Assembly (NCBI GenBank): GCA_007376405.1
Contig: VMGD01000001.1
Location: 66,891 to 130,890, forward strand
DNA length: 64,000 nt
Origin: Microgenomates group bacterium Gr01-1014_7
GTDB lineage: Bacteria; Patescibacteriota; Microgenomatia; Daviesbacterales; UBA10151
Direction of reading: 5' to 3'
A program made the position numbers and the translations under genes. This document shows, piece by piece, positions 1 to 46,509 of this stretch; position 1 is the first letter of the stretch; the number at the start of each line of letters is the position of its first letter. The notes below the pieces were generated by a model that saw only the letters and a list, made by a program, of their open reading frames with translations, had not been told where the DNA came from and made no database searches.

Positions 1-757
1 AAACTTCCTCCATTAATTTTTTTTGCTGCAGCTGCCACAGCTGCACATACGTCATGTACATGCTGAAAGCTTGCAAAATTGAATCCATAATTCCAATTGT
101 GCCGTTAAAAAAACCTTTCCTTAAAATTCCCTGATTAAAAATTTCGGTTGTAAAAATTCTTAAAAATCTCCAGGCAGACATTTTTGGATGGCCTGCTTCT
201 AAACGCAATTTGGCATCAATTTTACTCCACTCCAAACTTTTTAAGACTATCTGATCTACTCCTCTGTGGGTTAAGTGTAGAAGTGAATTTTTGGTGTAAC
301 CCAGTTTTCCTGTAAACTTCGGATATTCATGAACCCTGCCAATCCATCCCTCCAGCGCATCCCTTTTAATTAATCTGATAACCCAATCCGGCCAAAAGGG
401 ATCATATTTTACTTCGCTACCAAAAATTATATTTCTTCTGGAAATTGCATAAGCAGAAAACTCATCGGTTTCTATAAGTTTTTTTATTTCTTCTTTTAGT
501 AATTCTACTACCCTCTCGTCGGGATCAACGTACAGAAGCCAATTTCCAGAAGTTTCTTCAGCTGCCTTATTTCTCCATTTAGCAAAATCTTCCTCTACAA
601 ATGTTATTATCTTATCTGTATATTTTTTAACTATCTTTAAAGTTTTATCAGTTGATCCATGATCTGCTACAATAATTTCGTCAGCCCATTTAACTGACTC
701 AAGACAGGTCTTAATTCTGGATTCTTCATTTTTTGTAAGAATAATAACGCTAATCAT
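1..757 (-). CDS. glycosyltransferase family 2 (partial; C-terminal part lies beyond window start)
   Basis: Minus-strand frame is open from the ATG at 755-757 to the window edge. N-terminus MISVIILTKNEESRIKTCLESVKWADEIIVADHGSTDKT...YVDPDE is a GT2 (GT-A) Rossmann/DxD signature. Paralog of the adjacent 762..1652 gene. Absent from the ORF track because it runs off the window. Confidence 0.7.
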   Translation of the reverse strand, partial: MISVIILTKNEESRIKTCLESVKWADEIIVADHGSTDKTLKIVKKYTDKIITFVEEDFAKWRNKAAEETSGNWLLYVDPDERVVELLKEEIKKLIETDEFSAYAISRRNIIFGSEVKYDPFWPDWVIRLIKRDALEGWIGRVHEYPKFTGKLGYTKNSLLHLTHRGVDQIVLKSLEWSKIDAKLRLEAGHPKMSAWRFLRIFTTEIFNQGILRKGFFNGTIGIMDSILQAFSMYMTYVQLWQLQQKKLMEEV

Positions 758-761
758 AGAA

Positions 762-1652
762 TTATCTTTTAAAAATCTTTAAAAATTTCTTTAGCCCTTT
801 TGCGCCTTTTGATTCTTTTATCCAGTAGTTAATATCTTTGCTCACTCTTGTTGTTTGGTTTTCAAACTCTGCCAGATTCAACTCTTGCTCCTTAAACTTA
901 GTTGTTTCCCACACCCTCAAATAAACAACAAAAAACGAAAAAGCCTGGAGCAGACTAAGAGATAAACCATGTAAACCATCTTTATAACCCTCATTTGTAA
1001 AATATCTTGATAAAAATTCGTTAAGCGGCTTGTCAAAAATATCTTGCCACCTGAATTTATAGCCTGATTTTTTTAGTTCCTCGGCTTGAATCTGGGTATA
1101 ACGATTCATTCTACTAATAAATTGTTCTATTGTCTGATAATTTTGATGTATTATTGACCATTTTTCTTCTGATGCAAGTTTCAAGCCAGTACCTTTAGCC
1201 TGAGGTTTGCTATGTATTTGGCTTTGCCAAACTACAGATCCCTTTTTAAAAAGTCTTATTTGATAATCCGGCCACCAACCAGAATGCTTAATCCACTTAT
1301 TGAAAATAATATTTTTTCTTGGTATCTCCACAAAATCAAACGAGCTCGATTTATTGACCAGCGCTTGTAGTCTTTTAGCCAAATCCTCATCTATTTGCTC
1401 GTCAGGATCAAGGACTAATATCCAGTCGTTTTTGGCTTTTGAAATAGCAAAATTCCTAGCAAGCTCAACATAATTTACTCTTTTATGAAAGATAACCTTT
1501 GCTCCCAAGTCTTTGGCAATTTCAGCGGTTTTATCATCTGAATACATATCACAAACTATAATCTCATCTGCCCATTTCACAGAATTTATAGCTTTAGCTA
1601 TATTTTTCTCTTCATTCCGGGTATTAATTATAACCGATATTTTTTGAGGCAT
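762..1652 (-). CDS. glycosyltransferase family 2
   Basis: 296 aa. MPQKISVIINTRNEEKNIAKAINSVKWADEIIVCDMYSDDKT...LDPDEQ is a typical GT2 N-terminal fold with DxD. Tandem paralog of the gene at 1..757. Confidence 0.8.
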   Translation of the reverse strand: MPQKISVIINTRNEEKNIAKAINSVKWADEIIVCDMYSDDKTAEIAKDLGAKVIFHKRVNYVELARNFAISKAKNDWILVLDPDEQIDEDLAKRLQALVNKSSSFDFVEIPRKNIIFNKWIKHSGWWPDYQIRLFKKGSVVWQSQIHSKPQAKGTGLKLASEEKWSIIHQNYQTIEQFISRMNRYTQIQAEELKKSGYKFRWQDIFDKPLNEFLSRYFTNEGYKDGLHGLSLSLLQAFSFFVVYLRVWETTKFKEQELNLAEFENQTTRVSKDINYWIKESKGAKGLKKFLKIFKR

Positions 1653-1662: not shown

Positions 1663-3291
1663 TTACCACTTTGGAGATACTATATAAAATGCCGGGTAGC
1701 CATTAGACAGATAGATCTTTTCCAATATTTCCCCCTCCTTTAGATCTTTCGGAAAACTCCATGGGCTTCCAATAAATAGTACTCCTTTTTTATCTTGATC
1801 TACAGTCCAGTCAATCTGTCTAAAGGTATATTTATTGAATTTAAAATAATATGTACTGTCTTTACTATGTATCTTTGTTTCGGTTTGATAGGTCTTAGGA
1901 TCATACTTTGTATAAAAAAGTACATATAGATAGGGATTGCTAACAAGATATGGTCCTTCAATCCCTCTTCGAGGGTCAAATACTATCTCATTATAACTTT
2001 CTTGATGGTCACGTATATATAAAGCTGCTTGCTTTAACCCCTCATCAAAAGATTCTCCTTTTGCTCTGGGAAAATGAACAGCAAAAGTCAAAAAGGCATG
2101 TATAAAGACAAGCACCGCTACAAAACTAAATCCAAAAGCTACAATAAATCTCTGGTAAACTTTAGAAAGACTTACTATCCATTTACAAAACCTAATTGCT
2201 CCAAGAGCCGTAATAAGGATTATTATAGGAGCAATATGTAAAAGCCTGCCAGCATGAATTTGGTTATTAGTTATGGAATCAGGAAAAATTCCTGTAAGTA
2301 ACCAGATTACAAAAATGCTTTTATAAGGTATCTTACGTTTTATAAATTCAATAATACCTAAAAGTAAAAATGGTAATTCAAAAAGATACAACACTCCTAA
2401 TCCAAAAGTGCCAGGCACTGTCATATTTAATCCATTAATGAACAAGAAATTTGGATCAAGATAACTTAAATACCTTTTTATCCAAAAAAATATTAACATA
2501 GGAAAATCAAAAAAAGAATGGGAGTTAAGCAGTATATACCTTTGAAATTCAACATCATTGGAGATAAGAACCATTGTAAGCCTTGTCCCTGCTCCTTGAA
2601 ATAAAGTTGCATAGACTAAGGGCAGCCCTAATATCACACAAGTTGATACGAAAATAATTATTTTATTCCTGTGGGTTTTAAATTTGCGGAAGTTAAAAAT
2701 TAATGATGTAACAATAAATACCGGTACAAATAACCTGGGGGCAGGAGCGGTATACATAGTCAAAATAAGAAAAAAAGCAGATAGGAAAGTCCATTTACGC
2801 CCTCCGTCAAACATTTTCATAAAAAACCAAATTCCTAGCAGCACAAAAAAAGATGCAATTATATATTCATATTCCATTCTTGAGTAAAAAATATGCCAGG
2901 ATGATATAGCAAGAAAGAAACTGCCTACTAAAGCCAGTCTCTTTTCCTTAAAAATTTTAAAAAGAAAAAGAAAAAATGAAGGGATTATCAAAGTCCCTAT
3001 AAAAAAGTTTTGAAATCTCACGGCAAAATCATTTAAGCCAAATAGTTTTATTGAGATGGCCATTATGTATCCGGGAATTGGGTTTTTATAATCTCCTACT
3101 GCCTGAAAAGTTATTGGAAGAAATTTTCCATACTCATCTCTCCCTGTATTTAGTATTGAGTATGCGGTATAGGCAAAAGATATCTCATCACCATTTAGAC
3201 TCGGGGGGTTTTCGGTATTTTTGTAAAATCTTAAAAATCCTCCTAACAATGTTATTAATATCAGGGTTATCAAAACAAAATGTTTTCTCAT
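1663..3291 (-). CDS. GT-C fold glycosyltransferase, ArnT/PMT-like (GT39/GT83-like) polytopic membrane protein
   Basis: 542 aa with more than 10 predicted TM helices. An acidic 'NGDEISFAYTAYS' motif lies in the first extracytoplasmic loop after TM1, which is the hallmark of ArnT/PMT-type GT-C enzymes. Confidence 0.6.
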   Translation of the reverse strand: MRKHFVLITLILITLLGGFLRFYKNTENPPSLNGDEISFAYTAYSILNTGRDEYGKFLPITFQAVGDYKNPIPGYIMAISIKLFGLNDFAVRFQNFFIGTLIIPSFFLFLFKIFKEKRLALVGSFFLAISSWHIFYSRMEYEYIIASFFVLLGIWFFMKMFDGGRKWTFLSAFFLILTMYTAPAPRLFVPVFIVTSLIFNFRKFKTHRNKIIIFVSTCVILGLPLVYATLFQGAGTRLTMVLISNDVEFQRYILLNSHSFFDFPMLIFFWIKRYLSYLDPNFLFINGLNMTVPGTFGLGVLYLFELPFLLLGIIEFIKRKIPYKSIFVIWLLTGIFPDSITNNQIHAGRLLHIAPIIILITALGAIRFCKWIVSLSKVYQRFIVAFGFSFVAVLVFIHAFLTFAVHFPRAKGESFDEGLKQAALYIRDHQESYNEIVFDPRRGIEGPYLVSNPYLYVLFYTKYDPKTYQTETKIHSKDSTYYFKFNKYTFRQIDWTVDQDKKGVLFIGSPWSFPKDLKEGEILEKIYLSNGYPAFYIVSPKW

Positions 3292-4448
3292 TGTTTCCCT
3301 ACCTCATAATTTTGCTCAAATTCATAATATTTTGTAAATCTGGCCTTTTCTCTAAGCTGGATATCTGAAATAACAACTAAGGACTGAAGAATAATTAATA
3401 TCAGGGTTAATATGAGAAAGATATTGTGAATCTTCTTTTTTTTATTTTTAATTAATTCTATCAATCCATAAGAAATAACTATTATTACTACCGGAGCAAA
3501 AATAATTAAACGATTTAAATCAACCATATTCCTTGATAAAACAGATGGAATAACTAACAAGCTGGACAAAAATAGCACTTTTCTTTGAGGTAATTTTATT
3601 AAATGATAAAGACCATAAACAAACGGTATTAAAAAGCCAAAAAGTATTGGAGGGGTGAATGAGAAGTTTAGAAGTTTCTCTTGGGGTGTAAAATAGTTGG
3701 AAGGTACCAGTTGCTTAGTATATTTTAACAATATATTTTCTACTGTAAAGAGGTATTTATTTTCGCTTATTTTAGCAAGTTTACCTAATCCCTCTTGCTG
3801 CGCTGCCCCCTGGTAATTGTTAACCATATTTAATAGACCAGGATCTGAAAAAATCTTGGTCTCATTATCTAAGATATTTCTAAAAGCAACACTATGCGTT
3901 TGGATTAGAAAAAAAAGTGGAAATAGTAAAAAAGTTATAATTACAAAGAAAATCTTTAAATCTTTAAAAGAAATTATTTTAAAGACTGTTATTAGAAGAA
4001 CTGCTGGAATAAGTAATAATAGAGTCAAAGAGCTATATCCTACTCCCAAAATAGCTACACTTATTAAAAGAGCCCCTAAAAAATTTTTATATTTTAGCAA
4101 AAGTAACCCATAAAAGCCTACCAAGATAAAGAAAAGAAGATAAATATAAAAAGATCCTGCTATAACTAGATAACTACTCCATGGTGAAACAGAATAAACA
4201 AAAGGAGTAATTAAGGAATATTTATTAAAAATTTTCTTACTTATGATCCAAAGTAAAATTAGATTTCCCGCTTCTAAGATATAAAATAACCATTGAGGTA
4301 CATATAAACTTTTACCTATCAAGTCGGAAAAAAATAATTTTTTGGGATCAAAATGAATAGGATACAAATTATTTTGAATTAATGTCAAAAAAAGATAATG
4401 AAGCAATAATATGCCAGCAAAAAGACTAATTTGCTTTTTTGTTTTCAT
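3288..4448 (-). CDS. polytopic membrane protein, unknown family (possible GT-C-like)
   Basis: 386 aa, very hydrophobic and multi-TM. Embedded in the membrane glycosyltransferase operon; 4-nt overlap with the downstream gene. Confidence 0.45.
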   Translation of the reverse strand: MKTKKQISLFAGILLLHYLFLTLIQNNLYPIHFDPKKLFFSDLIGKSLYVPQWLFYILEAGNLILLWIISKKIFNKYSLITPFVYSVSPWSSYLVIAGSFYIYLLFFILVGFYGLLLLKYKNFLGALLISVAILGVGYSSLTLLLLIPAVLLITVFKIISFKDLKIFFVIITFLLFPLFFLIQTHSVAFRNILDNETKIFSDPGLLNMVNNYQGAAQQEGLGKLAKISENKYLFTVENILLKYTKQLVPSNYFTPQEKLLNFSFTPPILFGFLIPFVYGLYHLIKLPQRKVLFLSSLLVIPSVLSRNMVDLNRLIIFAPVVIIVISYGLIELIKNKKKKIHNIFLILTLILIILQSLVVISDIQLREKARFTKYYEFEQNYEVGKQ

Positions 4449-6267
4449 TTTTGGCTAATAGATAGAAGGCTGGTTCCCCAGAAGGATGCTTAATTACTTT
4501 AATTAAAATTAAATCCGATGGAACTCTCTCAGGTTCCCTAATTAAATCCAGTTTAATTTCTTTAGCCGGAGCAAGGTATAAACTATTTTCCGGTAATATT
4601 GAGCCTAATTCATATAGATTCTTATCCAACCCAATTGGAGGAAAAGAAAAATTACCTAATACTGAAACCTTCCCAAAGTGATCTAAATTTTCTTGGACTA
4701 ATGGATATTTTTTCTGAAATTCAGCAGGTGGAAATTGCGACCAACCAAGGAAAAAAATCATCGGAGGCTCTTCTGCCGCACTGATAATAACTTTATTATA
4801 TTTATGGCTCTCAGAAACAACAGACTCTATTGCCTCTTTAAACCCACTATGCCACCATCTTTGGGAGTCCCAAGGAAAGTGAACCCAATAATTATGTTGA
4901 TAGAAAATAAAGCTTAAGAAATAAACTAGTGATAAGACAACAACAAATATTTTCCTAGTTTTTTTACTTATTAAATAATAAGAATGATATATTCCTAAAG
5001 TTGTAAGTATAATCAGAGGTGGAAGTAAAAAAAGCAATCTTGAAGCATGCGAACTACCATCCTTGGTTAAAATTGATGGTAGAGGAGCAGTTAAAATCCA
5101 CAAAATGAGCAGTAATCTTATTTTTATATTTTCTATCTTTAAAAATAAAAATACTAAGCCTAAAATTATAAAGATTGCCTCTAATTTATAAAACTCACCA
5201 TGTCCAATTACATTATGAGTAGGTTGAGGATCTCCACTTATGAATAAAAACTCTGTTGAAAAAGCCCCAAGATAATTATTTATAATTTGTGAAGTAAAAT
5301 AAATCATTCTGTTGTGAAATAATCTATCTAGAATACTTCCTTTTGCACCAAATAAGGCCTTAGAGTCACGTATCCTTGCATCTTGAAGTCTATCAAAACC
5401 TATTTCGGAAGAAGCTGTTTTACTATTAAAAACAGATGTGGATGAAAATCTATCAGTCCCTCCTCCAAAAAATGTGCTAAATACAAAGGGAATAGTTATT
5501 ATCAAAAAAGCTATTAAAGAAATTATTAAATATTTCTTCTGTATCTTAACTACATTTTTCCCATAAAGTAATGCTAGTATTACTAGAGTTAACGGTAGAA
5601 AAACTTTTGCTGAATGATAAGAGAGCGGCGTTAAAGCAAAAAAAATAGATGAAAATACTAACCATTTTCCCTGTTCTAATGAGCGGAGAAAAAAATACAG
5701 ACCAGCAGTAAATAAAGCTAGCATTAATGTTCCTTCAAAACCCCATCTGGAATAATGAATATGCCAAGGAGAAATTGTAAGTACAAATGCAGTCAAAAGG
5801 GCCAAAGAGTTATTTTTAAATGCTTGTTTTATAAGTAAATATAATAGGTAAATTCCTAAAACACCAAAAAGTGCAGCAGGTAAACGCACTCCCAAGGGTG
5901 ATATGCCAAATACCGAAACTGTTGGAATTATTGAATAGGCATAAAGAGGGGATTTATAATCAGCTAAAGATTTAAGGTGCAAAGGTAAAAAATGGCCTGT
6001 ATAATCCTTACCGGTTTTAGAAAGAGAATATGCATGATAACCCACATCTACTTCATCTCCAAATAAAGAAACAGGTACTTTATCCAATCCCCAGACTCTT
6101 AAAATTAAAGCTAAGAATAAAATCAGAAAGAGCAAAATATTCCTGCTTAATGAACTACTCCGCAGCAAAGCTGACGGAGTATCCTTCGGAAAGTTCTTAT
6201 GTGAACCATTCATCCCCGCAGCAAGCTGCGAGGTATTCTGGTTCAATAATAAAGACTTGATTGTCAT
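4426..6267 (-). CDS. GT-C fold glycosyltransferase, ArnT/PMT-like
   Basis: 613 aa. 'SLFGDEVDVGYHAYSL' acidic loop after TM1, then many TM helices and a C-terminal soluble domain. Confidence 0.6.
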   Translation of the reverse strand: MTIKSLLLNQNTSQLAAGMNGSHKNFPKDTPSALLRSSSLSRNILLFLILFLALILRVWGLDKVPVSLFGDEVDVGYHAYSLSKTGKDYTGHFLPLHLKSLADYKSPLYAYSIIPTVSVFGISPLGVRLPAALFGVLGIYLLYLLIKQAFKNNSLALLTAFVLTISPWHIHYSRWGFEGTLMLALFTAGLYFFLRSLEQGKWLVFSSIFFALTPLSYHSAKVFLPLTLVILALLYGKNVVKIQKKYLIISLIAFLIITIPFVFSTFFGGGTDRFSSTSVFNSKTASSEIGFDRLQDARIRDSKALFGAKGSILDRLFHNRMIYFTSQIINNYLGAFSTEFLFISGDPQPTHNVIGHGEFYKLEAIFIILGLVFLFLKIENIKIRLLLILWILTAPLPSILTKDGSSHASRLLFLLPPLIILTTLGIYHSYYLISKKTRKIFVVVLSLVYFLSFIFYQHNYWVHFPWDSQRWWHSGFKEAIESVVSESHKYNKVIISAAEEPPMIFFLGWSQFPPAEFQKKYPLVQENLDHFGKVSVLGNFSFPPIGLDKNLYELGSILPENSLYLAPAKEIKLDLIREPERVPSDLILIKVIKHPSGEPAFYLLAKNENKKAN

Positions 6268-31726: not shown

Positions 31727-31730
31727 TCTA

Positions 31731-33674: not shown

Positions 33675-33677
33675 GAA

Positions 33678-34358
33678 ATGATTTTATTCGAGTCGGTTTC
33701 AAAGAAATTCGGTTCTACAATTGCCCTTGATGATGTCTCTTTAGAGATAAAACAGGGGGAATTTGTTTTTATTGTTGGACCCTCCGGTGCCGGCAAATCC
33801 ACACTTCTTAGAATTCTCACCCGGGAAATAGTTCCATCCTCAGGCAGGGTAAAGGTGGGGGAAATGGATCTTACAAAAATAAAAGACAAAAATGTTCCGC
33901 ATTTGCGAAGGAAAATCGGGGTGGTTTTTCAGGATTTTAAACTGCTGGATGACCGGACGGTTTTTGAGCAGGTGGCTCTGACTTTAGAGGTCTTAGGTAA
34001 AACCGATGAGGAAATAGGAAAGCAGGTTGAACATATCCTCAAACTGGTAGAAATCTGGGGCCGCCGCAATTTATTTCCCAGACAGCTTTCAGGAGGGGAG
34101 GCTCAGCGAACTGCAATTGCCAGAGCTGTCGTGGGAAAACCGGATATTCTTCTGGCTGATGAACCAACAGGCGATTTGGACCTCAAAACCGCTTGGGGAG
34201 TAATCCAGCTTTTAAATGAAATTAATTCCTGGGGCACAACTATAGTCATGGCCACCCATAATCAGGAAATTGTTAATACTTTGAAACGCCGGGTTATAGT
34301 ATTAAAAAGGGGCAAAATCGCAAGCGATTCTAAAGTAGGAAAATATACAATTCATTAA
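33678..34358 (+). CDS. ftsE: cell division ATP-binding protein FtsE
   Basis: 226 aa. Walker A GPSGAGKST, ABC signature LSGGEAQR, Walker B ILLADEPTG. Followed by ftsX. Confidence 0.85.
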   Translation: MILFESVSKKFGSTIALDDVSLEIKQGEFVFIVGPSGAGKSTLLRILTREIVPSSGRVKVGEMDLTKIKDKNVPHLRRKIGVVFQDFKLLDDRTVFEQVALTLEVLGKTDEEIGKQVEHILKLVEIWGRRNLFPRQLSGGEAQRTAIARAVVGKPDILLADEPTGDLDLKTAWGVIQLLNEINSWGTTIVMATHNQEIVNTLKRRVIVLKRGKIASDSKVGKYTIH

Positions 34359-34361
34359 AAT

Positions 34362-35234: not shown

Positions 35235-35246
35235 CCTGTCTATCAT

Positions 35247-36395: not shown

Positions 36396-36416
36396 TATTT
36401 AACTATTATTAAGGTA

Positions 36417-37532: not shown

Positions 37533-37948
37533 AAAAATATATTACCCGCTCGGAAACAGAAACCAAAAAACTGGCCGAAAGATTTGCCCAAAAATTTTCC
37601 GGTAGAGTCATTACCTTAACAGGCGAACTCGGCGCAGGAAAAACCACTTTTGTTCAAGGCTTTGCCAGAGGACTGGGAATTAAAGAAAAAATTATCTCCC
37701 CCACTTTTGTCCTAATCCGCCAGCACAAAATCCCAAATTCTTCAAAAGCACTTTTTCATATTGATCTTTACAGACTGGATGATATTTCACATATTGACAA
37801 TTTGGGCCTTAAGGAAATTCTAGAAAATCCCGATAACATAGTGATTATTGAATGGCCGGAAAAAATAAAGAAATTTTTACCAAAAAATCCTACCTGGATA
37901 ACCTTTGAAACTTCAAAAGATAATAAAAGGGAAATTATTGCCAATTAA
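37529..37948 (+). CDS. tsaE: tRNA threonylcarbamoyladenosine biosynthesis ATPase TsaE
   Basis: 139 aa. The 'LTGELGAGKTTFVQGFARGLGI' P-loop is diagnostic of TsaE/YjeE. Confidence 0.8.
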   Translation: MKKYITRSETETKKLAERFAQKFSGRVITLTGELGAGKTTFVQGFARGLGIKEKIISPTFVLIRQHKIPNSSKALFHIDLYRLDDISHIDNLGLKEILENPDNIVIIEWPEKIKKFLPKNPTWITFETSKDNKREIIAN

Positions 37949-39509
37949 CTTCTTTTCTAATTTCAACTTCCAAGGGGCCTACCATTTCTTTTCCAATAGT
38001 TTCCCAATTGTATTTAATAAAATCCCCTTCCCATCCAAAGCGGGTATAATTTCTATTAGGTTCTTTAATCAGAAAAACTAATCCTGAAAAATTCTCTTTT
38101 GATCCTTGGAATTTATCTTGACTGGGAATATATGGCGGTTTATTGGGGGAATAGACATACTCACCCGGTATATATCCATAGGTCTTTTTTCCATACCACC
38201 AGAAAAGATATTGATATGGATAGTCATAAACCGAAGGAAGATAAGTATAAACCCTAAAGTTTTGCCCTTCTGCTTTTTTATAGACATAATCTATTGCAGC
38301 TATCTCATTTTTATATAAAGAAGGATCCATATTAATTTTACCAACATCATTAAGAAAAAAATTAAAAATATTTACCAGGGCAAAAAAACAAATCAAAATC
38401 CCAATAATCGGCGCAATTAGTTTCCCCATCAAATTAAAATCCCTAATTTCTTTTAATAAAAAACCAATCAGTATTAAAGATGCACTCATCTCTCCACCCA
38501 AATGCCAGGGATTAACCGCAACCGGCAAAATCAAATAACCTAAAAATGGAACAAAAATATAAACTAAGGAAAGTATTACTAATGAGTTTTTTTTAACTGC
38601 GCTTTTCCAAATTTTTAAAATCAGTAAAATAAATAGTCCCAAAATGATCCAGGCAAGAGTCTGATGATTCATCAAAGTCGGCACAAAAGTATTAAAAAAA
38701 GAAGAGGAGATAGTTTGAAGTCTTGCTGCCGGATTAAACCCCATTCCGGATGAGCCCTGATCTAAAAAGTTAAGTACAGACTTGCTCATAATAAATTGAT
38801 GCCTTAAATCAAAAATAATTTGGGGCATTAAAATTACTACAAAGAAGATACTACCCAGCCAAAAAGCTTTCTTTTTTAATAAATTCTTTTTTATAAAAAA
38901 AGTGGACACTAAAATAATCACTGGAATAAAAATCCCAAAATTCATTTCAAAATTAAAAAATAACCCTCCCAGAAACCAGGCAGAAATACTATATAAAAAC
39001 CTTCCGGTTTCCAGATATTTAAAAAGTAAAAAAATAAAAAGCGGTGTTAAAAGTGTCACCGGATTTGGGTTAAAAGCATAAAGGTTTGTTAGCACTATAT
39101 AATTTGATGCAACCCATAATAATCCTATTGTTATAGTAATCCAGGTTCCCCATTTACTGACCAGCTTTAGCAGAAAAAATCCTCCAATTGCCCAAAGAAT
39201 TATTTCCATAATAATAGATGCATAGGGATCACCGCCGGATAATACAAATGGGATAGCCAGCAAATAATACCAAGCCGGACCGTTAAACAATCCTTCGATT
39301 GCAGAGGTTGGACCAATCAACCTGAGTTTGTGTAAAACTACCATTTCTCTCACATCCACCATATCTCTGGCATTATCCATGTTAAAAAGAAAATTTCCAT
39401 TCCAGGTAAGAAACAGTCTATATAAGATTCCTGCCAGTAAAATGCCCAGAATTAATTTACTGTTTCGCATCTGATTTTGGTTTTCTAAATTGGAGAATGA
39501 GTCCCTCAT
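37935..39509 (-). CDS. GT-C-like polytopic membrane protein, 'DxARD...GPPTS' family
   Basis: 524 aa. 'FNMDNARDMVDVREMVVLHKLRLIGPTSAIEGLFNGPAWYY' after TM1. Paralog of 39457..40950, of 42686..44158, and of the C-domain of 21610..23799. Confidence 0.55.
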   Translation of the reverse strand: MRDSFSNLENQNQMRNSKLILGILLAGILYRLFLTWNGNFLFNMDNARDMVDVREMVVLHKLRLIGPTSAIEGLFNGPAWYYLLAIPFVLSGGDPYASIIMEIILWAIGGFFLLKLVSKWGTWITITIGLLWVASNYIVLTNLYAFNPNPVTLLTPLFIFLLFKYLETGRFLYSISAWFLGGLFFNFEMNFGIFIPVIILVSTFFIKKNLLKKKAFWLGSIFFVVILMPQIIFDLRHQFIMSKSVLNFLDQGSSGMGFNPAARLQTISSSFFNTFVPTLMNHQTLAWIILGLFILLILKIWKSAVKKNSLVILSLVYIFVPFLGYLILPVAVNPWHLGGEMSASLILIGFLLKEIRDFNLMGKLIAPIIGILICFFALVNIFNFFLNDVGKINMDPSLYKNEIAAIDYVYKKAEGQNFRVYTYLPSVYDYPYQYLFWWYGKKTYGYIPGEYVYSPNKPPYIPSQDKFQGSKENFSGLVFLIKEPNRNYTRFGWEGDFIKYNWETIGKEMVGPLEVEIRKEVNWQ

Positions 39510-40950
39510 ATTTAATTTCGCTAATCAAATCTGTTTTACTGTTTTCGGAACCTATTTCAAGATTAAATTCAGTATCCGGTATCCCCACGTGCGGTTCTAT
39601 TATAAAAAAACTTTTATCCAATGGTTTATCTATCTTTTTCAAATCATTAACTCCTAAAAGCCCGACTTGATCATGACCGGTAAATTCCGGGACATATCCG
39701 TATTTTTGTTTACCGTACCATGAATAAAGATAGGCCCAAGTAGTATTTGTCCAAAGCGGCAAAGTTAAAGTATTTATGGAAAACGGTTGACCTTCTGCTT
39801 TTTTATAAGTTTGATCAATTAAATCGATTTGATTTTTCAAAACCATATCATTAGGAATAACTAAAATGATTTGTCCTAAAGGAGAATTTTTAAAATGGGA
39901 GTAAAGATTAGATACAATAATTAAAAGAACTAACAACACAGCAAGGACCTTACTCCATTTAGTAAGAATTTTTATCATGTTGATAACGGCCAAAATTGCT
40001 CCAACCACTAACCCCACATTTGCATATGTATTACTATGCCCTCCGAAAATAAAAATAGGAAAATTTGAAAACAGATAAAAAAGTATTAACTTTTCTTTTC
40101 TAAGAAATGGCAAAACAACTAAAGCCAAAAGCCCCCCTAAAAAAACATTTGTTGGGAAAAAGTTATAAATAAAAATCTCAGAAAACCTATCCACATAATT
40201 TAACAAGGCTTGGCTAAATGGTGGCCTGAAATCAACTTGGGTAGCGGTGGCAATATTTAGAAAGCCACCCAGAAATGTTTGAAGAGTTTGAAATTTAATG
40301 GCGGCAATGATAAAAGGGCTTAATCCCAAAATAGCTAGAATTGAAGAAATCCTAATTTGGTTCAAAGTTACTTTGATTTTAAAAAGGTAACCAAAAATAG
40401 GTATTAAAAGTAAAAGATAAATTAAGAAAAATTGAAATTGGGAAGAGATTACTGCCGAAAGAAAGGCAAGATACAAAGCCTTATTCTCTCCCTTTTGCCA
40501 GATTCTTAAAAAGTAGAAAAATAATATAACAGTTAAAATTGAAGGTGAGGGATTTGAAAGCCAAGGGCCATATTGATTTGCCTCAAAGGAAACAGCAAAC
40601 AATAAACCTGCCAGTATTGCCCATTTAATATTTTTAAATAAATCTTTAGCAAGAAACATAATAGGAAAAACTGCTAAAGAGTTAAGAAAGGCTAAGAAAA
40701 ATGCAACCACTCGTGGATCACCTTTACCTAGTCCATAAAAAGGAGCTAAAAGATAATAGTAGAGTGCACCATGAAATAAACCAGGAGTTGATGTAGGTGG
40801 GCCTAAAATTTTTAAATCACCATTCCAAATTTGCAACGCAATAAAGGCATCTCTTGCCATATCGTAATGAAAAGAAACCGCTCCTTGAGAAATAAAAAGG
40901 ATGCGTAAAATAAAAGCTAAAATTATCAGAGGCAGTATAATTTTTAACAC
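39457..40950 (-). CDS. GT-C-like polytopic membrane protein, 'DxARD...GPPTS' family
   Basis: 497 aa. 'HYDMARDAFIALQIWNGDLKILGPPTSTPGLFHGALYYY'. The start at 40950 is a GTG in the ORF track. TM1 precedes the first ATG, so a non-ATG start is plausible. Confidence 0.5.
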   Translation of the reverse strand: MLKIILPLIILAFILRILFISQGAVSFHYDMARDAFIALQIWNGDLKILGPPTSTPGLFHGALYYYLLAPFYGLGKGDPRVVAFFLAFLNSLAVFPIMFLAKDLFKNIKWAILAGLLFAVSFEANQYGPWLSNPSPSILTVILFFYFLRIWQKGENKALYLAFLSAVISSQFQFFLIYLLLLIPIFGYLFKIKVTLNQIRISSILAILGLSPFIIAAIKFQTLQTFLGGFLNIATATQVDFRPPFSQALLNYVDRFSEIFIYNFFPTNVFLGGLLALVVLPFLRKEKLILFYLFSNFPIFIFGGHSNTYANVGLVVGAILAVINMIKILTKWSKVLAVLLVLLIIVSNLYSHFKNSPLGQIILVIPNDMVLKNQIDLIDQTYKKAEGQPFSINTLTLPLWTNTTWAYLYSWYGKQKYGYVPEFTGHDQVGLLGVNDLKKIDKPLDKSFFIIEPHVGIPDTEFNLEIGSENSKTDLISEIKYEGLILQFRKPKSDAKQ

Positions 40951-41011: not shown

Positions 41012-41938
41012 ATGAATATTTTAGTCACGGGCGGAGCAGGTTTTATCGGTTCTAATGTCACAAAACTATTGCTTGACGAGGGGCACAGCGTAACCGTAGT
41101 TGATAATCTATCAAAAGGACATAAAGAAAATATAGACCAGCGAGCAACTTTTGTGCAGGCGGATTTATTAGACCAACCAAAATTGGAAGAAATTTTACCG
41201 GAAACAGATGCTGTTATTCACATGGCTTCCTTAATAGAAGTAGGCGAGTCAGTTAAAAAACCTGTTGAATTTAGCGAAAATAACATTATCGGCACTGTTA
41301 AACTTCTGGAAGCTATGAAAAATACCGGCGTAAAAAAAATTATCTTTTCTTCCAGTGCCTGCGTTTATGGAACTCCATCTAAGCTACCTATTACCGAAGA
41401 TGATCCATTAGGAGAACAGGAGAATCCTTATGGAATTACCAAAGTTACAATGGAAGAGTTTTGTATTCTTTACCATAGCCTTTTTAATTTTGATGTAATA
41501 ATACTTCGCTATTTTAATCCTTACGGTCCGGGTGAACTACACCAACCGGAAACTCATGCTATCCCGAATTTTATAAAAGCTGTACTTTCCAAAAATCCCA
41601 TTCCCCTTTTTTGGAAAGGTGAACAGATAAGAGATTTTATCTATATTGACGACTTGGCTTATGCTCATATTTTGCCGCTAAATTTATCCGGCTTACATAT
41701 TTATAATGTGGGAACCGAACTTGGGGTTAAAGTAATAAATCTTGTAAACACGATTTTTAAATTAGTTGGATATGAAACTCCTATTAATCATAAAGGTGAG
41801 CGAGAAGGAGATGTATCCTCTCTTGTTGCCTCTTCAGAAAAAATTAAAAAAGAATTAGGCTGGAAAGCTGAGATTAATTTAGAAGAAGGCTTAAGAAAAA
41901 CTATTGATTTTTACCGCTCTCGCCTTTCTTCCACTTAA
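41012..41938 (+). CDS. NAD-dependent sugar-nucleotide epimerase/dehydratase/reductase (SDR; GalE/Rmd-like)
   Basis: 308 aa. 'MNILVTGGAGFIGSNVTKLLLDEGHSVTVVDNLSKG' Rossmann motif, with YxxxK downstream. Confidence 0.7.
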   Translation: MNILVTGGAGFIGSNVTKLLLDEGHSVTVVDNLSKGHKENIDQRATFVQADLLDQPKLEEILPETDAVIHMASLIEVGESVKKPVEFSENNIIGTVKLLEAMKNTGVKKIIFSSSACVYGTPSKLPITEDDPLGEQENPYGITKVTMEEFCILYHSLFNFDVIILRYFNPYGPGELHQPETHAIPNFIKAVLSKNPIPLFWKGEQIRDFIYIDDLAYAHILPLNLSGLHIYNVGTELGVKVINLVNTIFKLVGYETPINHKGEREGDVSSLVASSEKIKKELGWKAEINLEEGLRKTIDFYRSRLSST

Positions 41939-42641
41939 CAGCTGAAAAAAGCGGATAAAACATATCTTCTTTCTCCGGAATTTCCAAATTAATAAAACGA
42001 TTGGTAAATTCTATATATGGAATATCGGAAATAATTGCAATCGGAGTTTGCTCTGACCCTTCCCCCATTTCCAAAACCGCAGCTGTTGCCAGACTATCAG
42101 CTAAATTTGAGGTTTCCATTCTGAACTCTCTTCCGAATAAATCCTTCTTACCTATATAATCTCTTAATGGTTTAAATCCAAAATATCCAATTGCAATTCC
42201 AACTACTCCGGCCCGCAGCGGTATCAACCTTGAGTCTGTAATTATTACCCCTAATTTTTTTACTTTAAATTTTCTCTTTAAGAATTCCCATATTCTTTTG
42301 GCTGATTTTTGAGGATTTTTTGGCCAAAGAATATAAAACCCTGCTCCGTTACTTTCATCTATTCCCGAGGAAGCCACAAACATATTATTTTTAATAGTAT
42401 GCAGCATTTGTTTATTGGGAGATAACTTCCGCGGTATATATTTATCCGCCTCAGTAATTGCAAGTTTGTCTTTATTCTCTACTTGATTTATAGGTATGCA
42501 TCGTCGTTCACCTATAGATACTACTTTAGATGTAATTAGTACAACCGAATTTTCATTTAATAATTTAATGGCAGATAATAAATCCCAAAGATCATCTTTT
42601 GGGGGCAGAAATTTTCTTGTTTTGATTGCTTTAGTAATCAT
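41901..42641 (-). CDS. CofE-like protein (F420-0:gamma-glutamyl ligase family)
   Basis: About 246 aa from the likely ATG (MITKAIKT...). 'VLITSKVVSIGERRCIP' and 'LGVIITDSRLIPLRAGVVGIAIGYFGFKPLRDYIGKKDLFGREF' align with archaeal CofE motifs (VVCSTVISKAEGRIR; VGVIITDTNGRCFRRGVVGFAIGISGV...GRKDLYGREL). Confidence 0.6.
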   Translation of the reverse strand: MITKAIKTRKFLPPKDDLWDLLSAIKLLNENSVVLITSKVVSIGERRCIPINQVENKDKLAITEADKYIPRKLSPNKQMLHTIKNNMFVASSGIDESNGAGFYILWPKNPQKSAKRIWEFLKRKFKVKKLGVIITDSRLIPLRAGVVGIAIGYFGFKPLRDYIGKKDLFGREFRMETSNLADSLATAAVLEMGEGSEQTPIAIISDIPYIEFTNRFINLEIPEKEDMFYPLFSAVKWKKGESGKNQ

Positions 42642-42685
42642 ATGCGAATTATATCGTAAACGATTATAATGAAACCACAAATAAA

Positions 42686-44158
42686 ATGAAACGTTCTCAT
42701 CTAATTTTACTGGGACTTGTACTGCTAATCGGCTTATTTTTCAGAAGCTATCAAGCCGTAGAAAGATTTGAATTTGCTCATGACGGAGATTTGTATTCCT
42801 GGATATTCAAGGATATCGTTGTAAATCATCATTTTCGCTTGATTGGTCAACTAACCTCTGCCCCGGGAATTTTTATTGGAGGGCTCTTTTATTACTTACT
42901 TATCCCCTTTTTCTTATTTTTCAACATGGATCCGATTGGTGTAATTTTGTTTGCAATAATAATCGGCTTATTAACAATAACAAGTTATTACTTTGTATTC
43001 TCATCGCTTTTCAAAAAAGATGTTGGTTTAATTGCCGCTTTTTTGTATGCAACTTTATTATCTACAATTAACTTTGACAGATGGGTTGTGCCAACTATCA
43101 CTACTAACCTCTGGGTTATCTGGTATTTTTATACAGTTATAAAACTTGCCCGGGGAGAATACAAAATATTAATTTTAGCAGGAATTTTAATTGGACTTAT
43201 ATGGCACGTTCATCTTGCATTACTTCCCACCCTTATCGCTATTCCTGCTGCGATTTTTGTATCAAAAAAACTTCCCAATAAAAAACAAGTCTTCATCTTT
43301 CTACTTTCATTTTTTATTACTTCTTTACCTTTAATCATTTTTGAGGTAAGACACGGTTTTTCTCAAACGCGCAGTTTAATTGAAAATTTTTTTGCCTCTC
43401 ATAGCGGGGAAACGGGTATTTCAAAACTTAGTACTGTTTTGGGTATGATTACCAAAAATATTAACACTCTGTTTCTGTCTCCTCATAGTTTGGACAACTG
43501 GATGAGACCCCTATTTATTGTCCTGATACTTTCAACAGCCTTTATCTTATACAGAAAAAAATTACTTTCAAATAAAGAAATTATTCCGCCAGCCTTTTGG
43601 ATTATAGGTGTAGTAGGATTTTTTACTTTTTCCTCCAGCTTAATTTCCGAATATTATTTTTCTAATATTGAAATTATTTTTATTACTTTGGTAAGTTTAA
43701 CACTCTACCTTATTTACCGCGAATCCAAAATCGGAAAATTTTTAATACTTTTTTTGCTGGCATTTATTTTAGTTAAAAATATCTATTTTTTTACTAATCA
43801 ATATATTTATCACAAAGGTTATGTTGAAAAGAGGGCTCTGGTTGATTACATTACCATGGATGCAAAAAACAAGGATTATCCTTGTTTTGGAATAAGTTAC
43901 ATTACTGCTCCGGGAGAAAATGTCGGTTTCAGATATTTTTTCCTGTTAAAAAAAGCTCATCTAGTCCATCCCTCTTTGGATGTACCTGTTTACAACATAG
44001 TAATACCGGAAGAGTTATCTTTGAGAGAAGTCAAACAAAAATTCGGCCATATCGGATTAATTCCTCCTAAAAAAACCCCTTCAAAAGATCTTATGAAAGA
44101 AGCGTGTAGTGAAAAAAACACCAATCTAACTGATCCTATGTTTGGCTATGTAGATTAA
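42686..44158 (+). CDS. GT-C-like polytopic membrane protein, 'DxARD...GPPTS' family
   Basis: 490 aa. 'FAHDGDLYSWIFKDIVVNHHFRLIGQLTSAPGIFIGGLFYY' after TM1. Confidence 0.55.
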   Translation: MKRSHLILLGLVLLIGLFFRSYQAVERFEFAHDGDLYSWIFKDIVVNHHFRLIGQLTSAPGIFIGGLFYYLLIPFFLFFNMDPIGVILFAIIIGLLTITSYYFVFSSLFKKDVGLIAAFLYATLLSTINFDRWVVPTITTNLWVIWYFYTVIKLARGEYKILILAGILIGLIWHVHLALLPTLIAIPAAIFVSKKLPNKKQVFIFLLSFFITSLPLIIFEVRHGFSQTRSLIENFFASHSGETGISKLSTVLGMITKNINTLFLSPHSLDNWMRPLFIVLILSTAFILYRKKLLSNKEIIPPAFWIIGVVGFFTFSSSLISEYYFSNIEIIFITLVSLTLYLIYRESKIGKFLILFLLAFILVKNIYFFTNQYIYHKGYVEKRALVDYITMDAKNKDYPCFGISYITAPGENVGFRYFFLLKKAHLVHPSLDVPVYNIVIPEELSLREVKQKFGHIGLIPPKKTPSKDLMKEACSEKNTNLTDPMFGYVD

Positions 44159-44160
44159 AT

Positions 44161-46509
44161 ATGAGTTTAAAAGAAGCAATATTAACCTTAATATTTTTTA
44201 CAGTTATTACAATTGTATTTTTCTACAAAATATTTCTTGGTCTAATTCCGCTACCTACTGATTTAATTGTAGGGGGTTATTATCCTTGGCTAAGTTATAA
44301 ATGGGGTTATATCACAGGAGTACCGGTCAAAAATACTAAACTCTCTGACTCAGTATCGCTGTTTTATCCTGCAAAAGCCTTAGCTGCCGAATTTGAGAAA
44401 AAGGGAGAATTTCCTTTGTGGAACCCTTATATGTTTGGGGGATATCCTCTTTTTGCTAGTGTTTCGTTTGGTTTACTTTTTCCTACTATGATTTTTTATC
44501 TTATATTCCAGGCTCCAATTGCCTGGACCTTACAGACAATGTCTCAATCTATCCTAGCCTCATTTTTTATGTACTTACTTTTAAGACATCTTAAGTTGGA
44601 CAAAATTGCTAGTGTTTTTGGAAGCATTGCTTTTGGATTTGGGGGCTTTTCAATTTTGTGGTTACAGTGGAATACTCAAGCTACCACCGCCTTATTCTTA
44701 CCAATTCTAATTTTACTTATGGATAAGTACTTAATTTCAAAAAAGCTTAGATGGGGGGCGCTGTTTAGTATTTTTCTTGCTTTACAAATATTTGCAGGTT
44801 ATTTACCAATTATCCTATTAACTCTAGTCAGTCTTGTAATCTGGTATATCTTTAGATCAAATAGCCTATCTTCTCTAAAGATAATTTTTTTTGTTATCCT
44901 AGGAATACTCTTAAGCGCTGTTTATTTACTTCCTGTTGGTGAGCTGATCCAAATTTCTCAAAGAAAAGTTGAGACACTAGGACCTGCTGGACCATTCACG
45001 CCACCTGAAAATTTTATTAATTTAATTGCCCCTGATTTTTTTGGCAATGATGCAACCAGCAATTTTTGGGGAAGAGGAGATCATATGGATGCCACCTTAT
45101 ATGTAGGCATAATAACTTTAATACTGGCGCTTTACGGTATAAGTAAGTTTTATAAAAAGAGAGAAGTTAAATTTGCTGTTTGTCTTTTTATTGTTACCAT
45201 AATAATCTCAGTATCTAATCCTCTAAGTGACTTTCTATATAAATTAGGTGTTTGGGGAGGTTCCTCTATAACCATGAATCGTGTAAATTTTATGATGAAT
45301 TTTTCTCTGTCTCTTCTGGGAGCATATGGAATCCTAGCTATTAAAAATTTTTATTCAAAGCTAAGTTTAAAACCAGCTATATTAGTGGCAGCAGTTGCCT
45401 TAGGAGTAATTTTGGGTTTATTGATATCTAAAGAAATGCTACTTAAAAGCTTGAATGAAGCCACTGTCAGTAGCGAGATAATTAGCTGGCTGGCGCGTAT
45501 CAATATCAGTTTAAGAAATACTATTCTTCCTTCCTTTTTAATTGCAGTGGGGGTTTTGTTAATCTATCTATCAAAAAAATTCCAGCGTATCAGACAAATC
45601 TCAGCATTTATTTTTATCTTGGTACTTACTTTTGAATTATTTAGATTTGGGCTTAAGTTTAATACATTTGCAAAACCTTCATTTATTTATCCCCAAACAC
45701 CTATTACAAACTTTTTAGAAAGATATCCTAATGATCGATTTATTGCCGAACAAAACATCCTACCTGCAAATATGTGGGTTCCTTTCAAGCTTTCTTCTAT
45801 GCAAGGATATGATGGGATATACCCATTAAATACGGCTAAACTTTTAGCTGTTGCGGATTCCGATAATACTGATGCAACTCCAATGACAAGATGGGGTGTT
45901 TTGCAAAACTTCAACTCTAAAATTTTGGATGAGACAAATACACGTTTTCTGTTAATTGAAAAAAAGAAAAATCAGTATGAAGCTAGTGATAAATACAAAA
46001 AAGTATTCGAGGATAAGGAGGTAGTGGTACTGGAAAATACTCAAGCTCTTCCCAGAGTATATTTAACCAAAAAAGTTATTAAAACATCTGATCAACAAAC
46101 TCTTAAGCTTTTACTAGATGAAAATTTTCCAATTAGAACAACTTCTGTCACGGAAGATTTTGAATTTAACAATGTCTCGGAAGAAACCTTAAGCGCTGAT
46201 TTAGAATATAGATCTGTTACAAACTCTCATGTAGTGATTAAAGCTAATTCTAATATTGATGCATACCTGGTAGTTTTAGATTCATTCTATCCTGGATGGA
46301 AAGCTAAAATTGATGGGAATGAAACTAAAATTCACAGAACAAATTATAATTTTAGAGGAATACTATTACCAAAAGGGGACCACATTGTAGAATTTATCTA
46401 TACCCCAGAGTCCCTAAAATATGGAGCAATGATGAGTGGAACATCATTATTAATAATACTTTTGCTTCTACTTTATCCCTCTTTTAAGAGAATTTATGGT
46501 TCCAGGTAA
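44161..46509 (+). CDS. yfhO: YfhO-family membrane glycosyltransferase (GT-C)
   Basis: 782 aa. N-terminal region 'GGYYPWLSYKWGY...FPLWNPYMFGGYPLFASVSFGLLFP' matches conserved YfhO motifs. Many TM helices and a C-terminal beta-rich domain with a final TM. Confidence 0.65.
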   Translation: MSLKEAILTLIFFTVITIVFFYKIFLGLIPLPTDLIVGGYYPWLSYKWGYITGVPVKNTKLSDSVSLFYPAKALAAEFEKKGEFPLWNPYMFGGYPLFASVSFGLLFPTMIFYLIFQAPIAWTLQTMSQSILASFFMYLLLRHLKLDKIASVFGSIAFGFGGFSILWLQWNTQATTALFLPILILLMDKYLISKKLRWGALFSIFLALQIFAGYLPIILLTLVSLVIWYIFRSNSLSSLKIIFFVILGILLSAVYLLPVGELIQISQRKVETLGPAGPFTPPENFINLIAPDFFGNDATSNFWGRGDHMDATLYVGIITLILALYGISKFYKKREVKFAVCLFIVTIIISVSNPLSDFLYKLGVWGGSSITMNRVNFMMNFSLSLLGAYGILAIKNFYSKLSLKPAILVAAVALGVILGLLISKEMLLKSLNEATVSSEIISWLARINISLRNTILPSFLIAVGVLLIYLSKKFQRIRQISAFIFILVLTFELFRFGLKFNTFAKPSFIYPQTPITNFLERYPNDRFIAEQNILPANMWVPFKLSSMQGYDGIYPLNTAKLLAVADSDNTDATPMTRWGVLQNFNSKILDETNTRFLLIEKKKNQYEASDKYKKVFEDKEVVVLENTQALPRVYLTKKVIKTSDQQTLKLLLDENFPIRTTSVTEDFEFNNVSEETLSADLEYRSVTNSHVVIKANSNIDAYLVVLDSFYPGWKAKIDGNETKIHRTNYNFRGILLPKGDHIVEFIYTPESLKYGAMMSGTSLLIILLLLLYPSFKRIYGSR

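Follow-up and report, generated by a model that had tools for sequence, protein, structure and literature searches.

Why would a groundwater bacterium with a tiny genome keep so many putative external glycosyltransferases in one place? The question is raised by a 64,000-nucleotide stretch of DNA (the window) from a member of the Microgenomates whose nearest relatives are Candidatus Daviesbacteria. Positions 1-46509 of the window hold five glycosyltransferase family 2 (GT2) genes, a Wzx flippase, a fusion of a GT2 with a GtrA domain, the nucleotide-sugar genes rmlABCD, gmd and galE, and 16 polytopic membrane proteins, all of which connect to the GT-C superfamily of glycosyltransferases through Pfam, profile-profile comparison, BLAST or predicted structure. 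We consider it probable that this locus is a transmembrane glycosylation system of several components, multiplied many-fold, a lineage-conserved envelope-glycan cluster of Daviesbacteria-type Microgenomates.

Gene content and extent of the cluster

The gene map was built from a six-frame listing of open reading frames (ORFs) together with Pfam and NCBIfam scans (Table 1). The window forms part of contig ERZ27284378:k139_581057 in the European Nucleotide Archive (ENA; 144.8 kb), where window position x corresponds to contig position 77905-x. NCBI lists these proteins under the name 'Microgenomates group bacterium Gr01-1014_7'. An earlier note on this DNA, made from the sequence letters, had described about 46 kb given over almost entirely to glycosylation. 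The share is about 83%; two blocks, at 30.7-37.9 kb and 41.9-42.7 kb, hold housekeeping or unrelated genes and together take up about 8 kb. Its inventory of five GT2 genes (three of polyprenyl-phosphate sugar synthase type), a Wzx flippase, a GtrA-like domain, rmlABCD, gmd and a short-chain dehydrogenase/reductase (SDR) epimerase was borne out, the epimerase being GalE.

The note had also proposed an operon of 13 genes and about 21 kb. Between 20832 and 1 there are indeed thirteen co-directional genes on the minus strand, neighbours overlapping by 1-46 nucleotides or standing at most 10 apart, but the full run is longer: it starts at 23799 and crosses the window start to take in GT2 (267 aa), GT1 (357 aa) and PMT (551 aa) genes on the contig, for a total of about 27 kb and 18 genes. 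The cluster extends at least 9 kb beyond the window start, with four further PMT/PMT_2 genes. Past the co-directional run, this extension (locus L005) has a further three PMT/PMT_2 genes, a six-helix protein of 255 aa and one additional gene each for GT2 and GT1, so that at least 20 GT-C genes lie within about 56 kb. The main operon does not include several GT-C genes, which lie at 37935-40950 and 42686-46509 on one strand or the other. No cluster ORF is broken, and stop codons overlap start codons. On the right the cluster ends with the YfhO gene, and everything beyond 46509 is housekeeping (NAD(P)HX dehydratase, SecA, SerRS, a class II aminoacyl-tRNA synthetase, GreA, a two-component system, an H+-pyrophosphatase and Lon).

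Connection of the membrane proteins to the GT-C superfamily

By a simple hydropathy scan, which undercounts, each of the 16 proteins has 6-14 hydrophobic helices. Nine of the 16 reach the Pfam cut-off for PMT, PMT_2, PTPS_related or YfhO. PMT or PMT_2 is at or above cut-off in 1663-3291, 4426-6267, 13202-14362, 19351-20832 and 21610-23799, PTPS_related in 15965-17629 and also in 13202-14362, and YfhO in 44161-46509; PMT_2 falls just under its cut-off in 37935-39509 and 42686-44158. We take PTPS_related and YfhO to be members of Pfam's GT-C clan.

Family alignments built from orthologues in related loci were compared all against all with hhalign, Wzx serving as negative control. Proteins below the Pfam cut-off join the GT-C network at hhalign probabilities of 88-100%, 39457-40950 being connected by BLASTP only. 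Family C matches YfhO (99.2-99.4%), to which it is related at profile level only. GTCx1 and GTCx3 match the GT-C half of the GT2-GT-C fusion (99.7-99.9%), and that half matches PMTb (99.5%). S386 matches PMTb and PMTa (98.6% and 98.3%), the PIG-M-like protein matches PMTc (92.7%), and B672 matches YfhO (87.8%). The Wzx control remained below 8% against every family. Alignment A4 gave no match to A3, and A1 reached A3 at 25% only. Taken together, BLASTP and hhalign distinguish at least six paralogous families, in keeping with the five or more that had been proposed. Single-sequence PDB searches with family B, family C, S386, PMTb and YfhO returned no match.

Motifs in the first external loop were read by eye. 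The earlier note had counted at least 15 GT-C-like proteins bearing an acidic DE/DD motif there. The number of proteins stands, but the literal motif is found in nine, counting the ED of 13202-14362: DE in the genes starting at 1663, 4426, 19351 and 21610, DD or ED in the four family C genes, and DGD in 42686. Six others have a single Asp in another context (HDG in both family B proteins, FDG in 23822, MDN in 37935, YDM in 39457 and a lone first-loop Asp in the YfhO protein 44161), and S386 has no conserved acid. At least one first-loop Asp or Glu is conserved (>=90%) in 11 of 15 family alignments, including family B and D50 of 23822-24961, a count that leaves out 39457-40950 as homologues are lacking. 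In PMTa, D35-E36 is conserved in 21/21 sequences; in C1, D37 and D38 are conserved in 23/23.

PF02366 (PMT) is matched above cut-off by 1663-3291 and 4426-6267, and the DE motif is conserved in both. Neither the C-terminal PMT_4TMC module nor MIR was matched in Pfam by the cluster proteins at E values up to 0.01. Judged by sequence, these PMT-matching proteins are better described as generic PMT_2/ArnT-like GT-Cs. S386 has no Pfam, NCBIfam or PDB match, profile search included. Its hhalign alignment with PMTb covers only the part after the DE motif, 6 of its 26 homologues match PMT_2, and in relatives complete S386 sits between PMTb and PMTa. It is possibly a non-catalytic partner or subunit, in an arrangement that recalls Pmt1-Pmt2-type complexes. 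The profile of the PIG-M-like protein (23822-24961) matches a solved glycosylphosphatidylinositol (GPI) mannosyltransferase I in the PDB (E 8e-4), and its homologues score for PMT_2 below cut-off, some of them carrying PA14 domains. GTCx2 has no Pfam match and too few homologues for a profile. The short family C protein, Cs, was considered as a truncated pseudogene and this was rejected, the short form (333-412 aa) being kept in seven relatives.

Could the membrane proteins be transporters instead? Profile searches placed none of them in a transporter family, the Foldseek transporter probability of family B was below 0.1, and the Wzx control was unlinked to the GT-C profiles; the transporter reading was rejected. 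A polyprenyl-phosphate-linked donor is the predicted donor for the GT-Cs, and is supported by the co-located GT2 synthase-type genes.

Table 1 Features of the cluster and adjoining genes, in window coordinates
Feature	Coordinates	Strand	Evidence
GT2, runs off window start (full gene 267 aa on contig, L005)	1-757	-	Pfam Glycos_transf_2 E 6e-17
GT2a, 296 aa, cytoplasmic type, one C-terminal hydrophobic helix	762-1652	-	Pfam E 2e-21
PMTa, PMT/PMT_2 type, 542 aa	1663-3291	-	Pfam PMT 28.5 bits vs cut-off 22.7
S386, 386 aa, 8 helices	3288-4448	-	PMT-derived membrane core without external domain
PMTb, PMT_2/PMT type, 613 aa, D71-E72	4426-6267	-	Pfam PMT_2 E 5e-14
B672, family B short form, 672 aa	6264-8282	-	STT3/AglB-like fold
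B1162 residues ~496-1162	8284-10287	-	Family B GT-C membrane core and C-terminal globular domain
B1162 residues 1-495	10288-11772	-	Signal anchor, external DUF3863-like barrel (predicted; deacetylase/GH57 superfamily), then beta-rich region
Wzx / MOP-family flippase, 477 aa	11769-13202	-	Polysacc_synt_3 E 6e-52; NCBIfam MOP flippase E 1e-46; 10 predicted helices
Cs, family C short form, 386 aa	13202-14362	-	Pfam PMT_2 35.6 bits and PTPS_related 33.4 bits, both above cut-off
C1, family C, YfhO-like, 558 aa	14317-15993	-	hhalign 99.4% to YfhO
C2, family C, 554 aa	15965-17629	-	Pfam PTPS_related E 4e-13; hhalign 99.3% to YfhO
C3, family C, 573 aa	17626-19347	-	36% identity to C2; hhalign 99.2% to YfhO
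PMTc, PMT_2 type, 493 aa	19351-20832	-	Pfam PMT_2 E 7e-10
GT2s, soluble, 246 aa, polyprenyl-phosphate sugar synthase type	20870-21610	-	Pfam E 3e-32
GT2 synthase + PMT_2-type GT-C fusion, 729 aa	21610-23799	-	Pfam GT2 E 2e-32, PMT_2 E 6e-11
Small PIG-M-like GT-C, 379 aa, divergently transcribed, invariant D50	23822-24961	+	
GT2 synthase with C-terminal GtrA/DPMS transmembrane domain, 394 aa	24958-26142	-	Pfam GtrA_DPMS_TM E 3e-21, GT2 E 4e-21
gmd-like (GDP-mannose 4,6-dehydratase)	26139-27179	-	GDP_Man_Dehyd E 2e-89; TIGR01472 297 bits, below 415-bit cut-off
rmlD, rmlC, rmlB, rmlA (long form), dTDP-L-rhamnose synthesis	27176-30693	-	RmlD_sub_bind, dTDP_sugar_isom, GDP_Man_Dehyd/Epimerase, NTP_transferase (Pfam)
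Housekeeping or unrelated: CAP-domain protein, TsaB-like ORF, prfB, 147-aa protein, ftsE, ftsX, M23 peptidase, Ser/Thr-rich secreted protein, tsaE	30848-37948	mixed	
Secreted protein, long Ser/Thr/Pro linker from ~residue 117, C-terminal membrane anchor	36417-37532	+	Read from sequence
GTCx1, PMT_2-related, 524 aa	37935-39509	-	Pfam PMT_2 25.2 bits vs 26.1 cut-off; hhalign 99.7% to fusion GT-C part
GTCx2, PMT_2-related by paralogy only, 497 aa	39457-40950	-	BLASTP E 3e-9 to 5e-11 vs fusion protein, GTCx1, GTCx3
GalE, UDP-glucose 4-epimerase (SDR)	41012-41938	+	TIGR01179 267 bits vs cut-off 262
CofE-like gene	41901-42680	-	Unrelated to glycosylation
GTCx3, PMT_2-related, 490 aa	42686-44158	+	hhalign 99.9% to fusion GT-C part; Pfam PMT_2 20 bits, below cut-off
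YfhO-family GT-C, 782 aa	44161-46509	+	Pfam YfhO (PF09586) E 3e-23, 82.7 bits vs 28.5 cut-off; C-terminus matches PgfM2

Family B and the B1162 fusion

Family B consists of B672 and the membrane part of B1162, an 1162-aa protein encoded at 8284-11772. It has no Pfam, NCBIfam (STT3 models included) or PDB sequence match at E values up to 10, PDB profile search included. Its AlphaFold model has a predicted local distance difference test score (pLDDT) of 89.4, a predicted template modelling score (pTM) of 0.91 and a full helical core preceded by three additional N-terminal helices. The best structural matches are STT3 and AglB, C-terminal globular domain included, and Foldseek concurs; AftA, AftB, AftD and PimE are also among the matches. 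The GT-C fold that the earlier note had anticipated from structure prediction was thus obtained for this family, and from the model we confidently predict family B to be a GT-C whose fold is nearest the oligosaccharyltransferases STT3/AglB. Read by eye, the C-terminal domain consensus of both family B alignments contains no WWDYG-type motif. Family B as a true oligosaccharyltransferase was not accepted, given the missing motif and the missing STT3 model match.

The full-length B1162 model is of mixed confidence (pLDDT 69.8). The profile of its N-terminal domain matches PDB entry 3lm3 (E 7e-7; DUF3863, PF12979; deposited as 'putative glycoside hydrolase/deacetylase') while scoring below the Pfam threshold for DUF3863. 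In the model this domain is a distorted beta/alpha barrel, followed by a beta-rich region with strands at residues ~336-467. Its fold matches are deacetylase-superfamily barrels, with match values of 22.4 for the H. pylori peptidoglycan deacetylase HP0310, 21.7 for 3lm3, 21.5 for an M. smegmatis polysaccharide deacetylase, 18.5 for the GH57 amylase AmyC, 17.2 for a chitin deacetylase and 17.1 for ArnD. Four modelled helices lie between the N-terminal domain and the first external loop of the GT-C core, which would place the domain on the outer side of the membrane, the side shared with the GT-C active site. Across 26 homologues one His is conserved at >=90%, and D76, E99, D162, D183, D188, D230, D250 and E285 are invariant. 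Assignment as a CE4 deacetylase was considered and set aside: the fold fits and the metal-binding His pair is absent, so the label 'DUF3863-like' was kept.

In Amesbacteria-type and other Microgenomates loci (L058-L068, L070, L074 and L076), proteins of 575-690 aa carry a B1162-type N-terminal domain fused directly to the family B C-terminal domain, without the GT-C core. This fusion matches the family B C-terminal domain at an hhalign probability of 97.6% (E 4e-12). Its genes adjoin one of GT2s type, and several of the loci have PMT genes as well. The direct fusion makes the two soluble domains look like one functional unit.

Synthases and sugar supply

The best NCBIfam matches of the three synthase-type GT2s are PgfS, ArnC, AglJ, dolichyl-phosphate hexose transferase and PpgS; for GT2s they are PgfS, ArnC and Dol-P-hexose transferase (below cut-offs). 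In six relatives (L029, L038, L039, L069, L071 and L073) the GT2-GT-C fusion is split into adjacent genes for about 235 and 500 aa. Being fused in some genomes and split in others, this gene links a synthase with the transferase that it serves. There is a weak match between the GT-C half and the Agl23 model TIGR03663 (archaeal flippase activity-associated protein; 50 bits vs a cut-off of 126). Orthologues of GT2a, 50-64% identical, occupy the equivalent position in most related loci. Among the sugar genes, the rmlA product scores 356 bits against the rmlA_long model TIGR01208 (cut-off 320).

Conservation in related genomes

The B1162 alignment was scanned against 185,579 species-representative genomes, which yielded 71 loci, and BLASTP was used to compare their ORFs with the proteins of the window. 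Wherever a title gives a lineage, it is one of Daviesbacteria, Amesbacteria, Collierbacteria, Parcubacteria, the 'Microgenomates group' and the 'Patescibacteria group'. Many Daviesbacteria-like loci among L006-L076 bear titles such as 'uncultured Gammaproteobacteria bacterium ... binchicken' and 'uncultured Pseudomonadales', which look like placeholder or wrong labels.

A core gene order is kept in about 50 species-level genomes, mostly Daviesbacteria. It begins with the PIG-M-like gene (opposite strand), the GT2-GT-C fusion, GT2s, PMTc, one to four family C genes, Wzx and B1162, and continues with (B672), PMTb, (S386, PMTa), (YfhO), GT2a and GT2a'. PMTc was found in most loci that have the upstream flank. 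A minimal version, with five GT-Cs around B1162, is present in the complete Daviesbacteria chromosome CP066688.1 (820,589 bp; L046), relative to which the window cluster is an expanded version. Orthologues are mostly 50-79% identical (42-79% in closer relatives), and paralogues inside the window 27-36%. As orthologues are more alike than paralogues within one genome, the duplications are old and every copy has persisted; this retention suggests that the paralogues have distinct specificities.

Proposed function and alternatives

In the scheme that we favour, RmlABCD, Gmd and GalE would supply dTDP-rhamnose, a GDP-6-deoxyhexose precursor and UDP-galactose/glucose in the cytoplasm. The three GT2 synthases, one soluble, one GtrA-fused and one GT-C-fused, would put single sugars on polyprenyl phosphate, and in parallel the cytoplasmic GT2 and GT1 enzymes probably make a lipid-linked oligosaccharide primer. 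Wzx and the GtrA-like domain would then flip the lipid-linked sugars. Outside, some 20 GT-Cs of six or seven anciently diverged families would each add a defined sugar or linkage, building up a complex surface glycan in steps, much as mycobacteria assemble LM/LAM/arabinogalactan or as the ALG enzymes work in the lumen of the endoplasmic reticulum. The Wzx-B1162 pair would form a conserved core step, in which B1162 takes the flipped intermediate, transfers it and perhaps modifies it. Starting from the gene content, the fold or family of each component, the synteny, the predicted external location of the B1162 N-terminal domain and the age of the paralogues, we infer the donors, the order of the steps, the acceptor and the linkage of the product, be it to wall, lipid or protein.

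Several observations weigh against this scheme. Predicted structure covers family B alone, the remaining GT-C assignments being sequence profiles, and the NCBIfam scores behind all three synthase assignments are below the curated cut-offs. First-loop acid conservation was not seen in the alignments of Cs (13202-14362), PMTc (19351-20832) and YfhO (44161-46509), and the S386 homologue alignment has no invariant acid in that loop. A CE4 Asp-His-His metal triad is not evident in the alignment of the B1162 N-terminal domain. A promoter and terminator scan gave no enrichment over shuffled sequence. In the 46.5-kb cluster, its 9-kb extension (L005) and the Pfam labels of two relatives (L002 and L004), no priming phosphoglycosyltransferase (WecA/MraY-like or WbaP-like) was seen, nor a Wzy polymerase or LCP ligase; the lipid-diphosphate oligosaccharide branch of the pathway is therefore unproven.

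Part of the evidence would sit as well with a looser arrangement, to which we give a minor but real share of the probability. Here the cluster would be a collection of independent decoration systems, each GT2/GT-C set adding one sugar to a separate acceptor that is already in place, for example peptidoglycan, a teichoic-acid-like polymer, or surface proteins rich in Ser/Thr, pili or an S-layer, in the manner of CsbB/YfhO, GtlA/GtlB, Csd and Pgf/GtrB-PgtC2 in Firmicutes. The known systems do act as independent pairs (PMC8035078), and the GT-C genes outside the main operon, on both strands, would suit such sets. In NCBIfam the GT2 synthases and YfhO match PgfS and PgfM2 best, components of protein O-glycosylation in S. 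mutans, and Ser/Thr/Pro-rich secreted proteins are encoded at 36417-37532 and 50110-50994; Ser/Thr-rich disordered regions are GT-C substrates in streptococci (PMC12041528). With three synthase-type GT2s for 16-20 GT-Cs, however, most GT-Cs would have to share donors, and a tight operon whose order is conserved over about 50 species suggests coordinated action. The presence of Wzx and of cytoplasmic GT2 and GT1 genes within the operon suggests an oligosaccharide intermediate as well.

A further alternative is a design resembling the endoplasmic reticulum (ER), in which a lipid-diphosphate oligosaccharide is made in the cytoplasm, flipped by Wzx, extended on the outside by GT-Cs from polyprenyl-phosphate sugars and moved whole to protein or wall by family B as a novel sort of oligosaccharyltransferase. 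Among loci that have both flanks, all but one place Wzx directly upstream of B1162, and the parts list parallels ALG plus oligosaccharyltransferase (OST): cytoplasmic GT1/GT2, a flippase, DPM1-like GT2s, several GT-Cs and an STT3-like enzyme. The lack of a WWDYG-type motif in the family B C-terminal domain and of a priming phosphoglycosyltransferase in the regions listed above count against it, and we regard it as doubtful. Equally slim, in our estimate, is the chance that family B, and B1162 in particular, represents a new bacterial GT-C class which, within such an ALG-plus-OST design, would move the Wzx-flipped oligosaccharide whole onto a surface protein or the wall, or polymerise it there, while the B1162 barrel edits the glycan by deacetylation or trimming. 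To the idea that the locus is an artefact or a non-functional unit, whether a chimeric assembly or a set of decaying paralogues, we give next to no credence. The G+C content does vary from 0.31 to 0.41 over the interval, and two genes are short, a family C copy of 386 aa and the TsaB-like ORF of 100 aa; yet the gene order is shared by about 50 independent assemblies, which excludes a chimera, the ORFs are intact, the short family C form recurs in relatives, and orthologues in those closer to the source retain the identities given above.

As for acceptors of the proposed surface glycan, the protein at 36417-37532 has a homologue adjoining the cluster in L038 and is a speculative candidate. A 294-aa Pro/Ser/Thr-rich protein with one membrane helix is encoded on the plus strand at 50110-50994. 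From their composition, both mucin-like proteins are plausible O-glycosylation acceptors.

Comparison with characterised systems

Systems that combine a GT-A enzyme with a flippase of GtrA or Wzx type and a GT-C are well established, and Firmicutes have one to three pairs per genome (PMC8035078). The parallel drawn by the earlier note with such systems therefore fits, Wzx-type flippases being accepted in them; its description of the locus as an extraordinary investment is apt beside Firmicutes, but within this lineage such a cluster is the norm. Every component class of the known multi-component systems (CsbB/GtcA/YfhO, GtlA/GtlB, GacI/GacJ/GacK/GacL, Gtr, Csd and PgfS/PgfM; PMC8035078) also occurs here, namely a GT2 synthase of GT-A fold, a GtrA- or Wzx-type flippase and an external PMT_2- or YfhO-type GT-C. 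In contrast to them, the cluster described here has 16-20 GT-Cs for three synthase-type GT2s, one of these fused to a GT-C, has Wzx and cytoplasmic GT2/GT1 inside the operon, and includes two extra GT-C families without a database model.

Other systems share single aspects. The Arn pathway (ArnC, ArnD, ArnE/F, ArnT) also includes a barrel enzyme, ArnD, which works at the cytoplasmic face, whereas the barrel here is GT-C-fused, predicted to be external and devoid of the CE4 His pair. The mycobacterial set for lipomannan, lipoarabinomannan and arabinogalactan (LM/LAM/arabinogalactan; EmbA-C, AftA-D, PimE, MptA-C, Ppm1) likewise has many GT-C paralogues, a flipped primer and polyprenyl-phosphate sugars. 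There is no sequence-level orthology with that set, and here a single conserved, compact operon holds the genes, the genome measuring about 1 Mb, with donors that are probably hexose or deoxyhexose rather than arabinose; no DprE-type genes were seen. STT3, AglB and PglB resemble family B in structure, C-terminal globular domain included, and here a flippase gene is adjacent; family B differs in lacking WWDYG, in its three extra N-terminal helices and in having no STT3 Pfam or NCBIfam match. Unlike DUF3863 (PF12979, 3lm3), the B1162 domain shares a polypeptide with a GT-C core, and in Amesbacteria-type genomes its one fusion partner is the family B C-terminal domain.

Relative to the known design, what is new is the number of GT-Cs (20), the inclusion of Wzx and GT2/GT1 in the operon, the STT3-like family beside Wzx and the fused deacetylase-like barrel. 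Literature searches on this cluster, on GT-C expansion in the candidate phyla radiation (CPR), on DUF3863 function and on Daviesbacteria glycosyltransferases found nothing relevant. In a paper on Peribacteria, some eight 'dolichol-phosphate mannosyltransferases' receive a passing mention (PMC4736985), and a study of Saccharibacteria pili terms glycosylation there 'unexplored' (PMC11623550).

About 5% of a genome of 0.8-1.1 Mb is spent on one conserved cluster with some 20 predicted external glycosyltransferases, a commitment that identifies an elaborate surface glycan as one of the core traits of these bacteria. The envelope of CPR/Patescibacteria cells is still largely uncharted, and the cells live attached to or dependent on others, a lifestyle which makes surface chemistry probably central to their biology. 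The operon, the STT3-like family, the GT-C-barrel fusion and the synthase-transferase fusion offer targets for heterologous biochemistry, cryo-EM and glycomics, and the two families without a database model could enter Pfam and CAZy.

Neighbouring genes and sequence composition

The G+C content is 0.31-0.35 in the GT-C genes, 0.37-0.41 in the rml and housekeeping genes and 0.44-0.48 at 60-64 kb, where the genes for the H+-pyrophosphatase and Lon lie. Given the synteny of the cluster across relatives, the low values of the GT-C genes probably reflect membrane-protein composition and not recent transfer. The 255-aa protein past the window start (L005 16016-16780, contig) has six predicted membrane helices and no Pfam match, and lies on the strand opposite to the neighbouring extra PMT genes. 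On the minus strand at 31731-32033, the 100-aa TsaB/TsaD-family ORF covers positions 30-84 of the 264-position Pfam TsaD model; either the gene is truncated or this is a TsaB of very small size. A lone PF05635 gene (23S rRNA-intervening-sequence protein family) is found on the minus strand at 53116-53496, between an HD-domain gene and a class II aminoacyl-tRNA synthetase gene.

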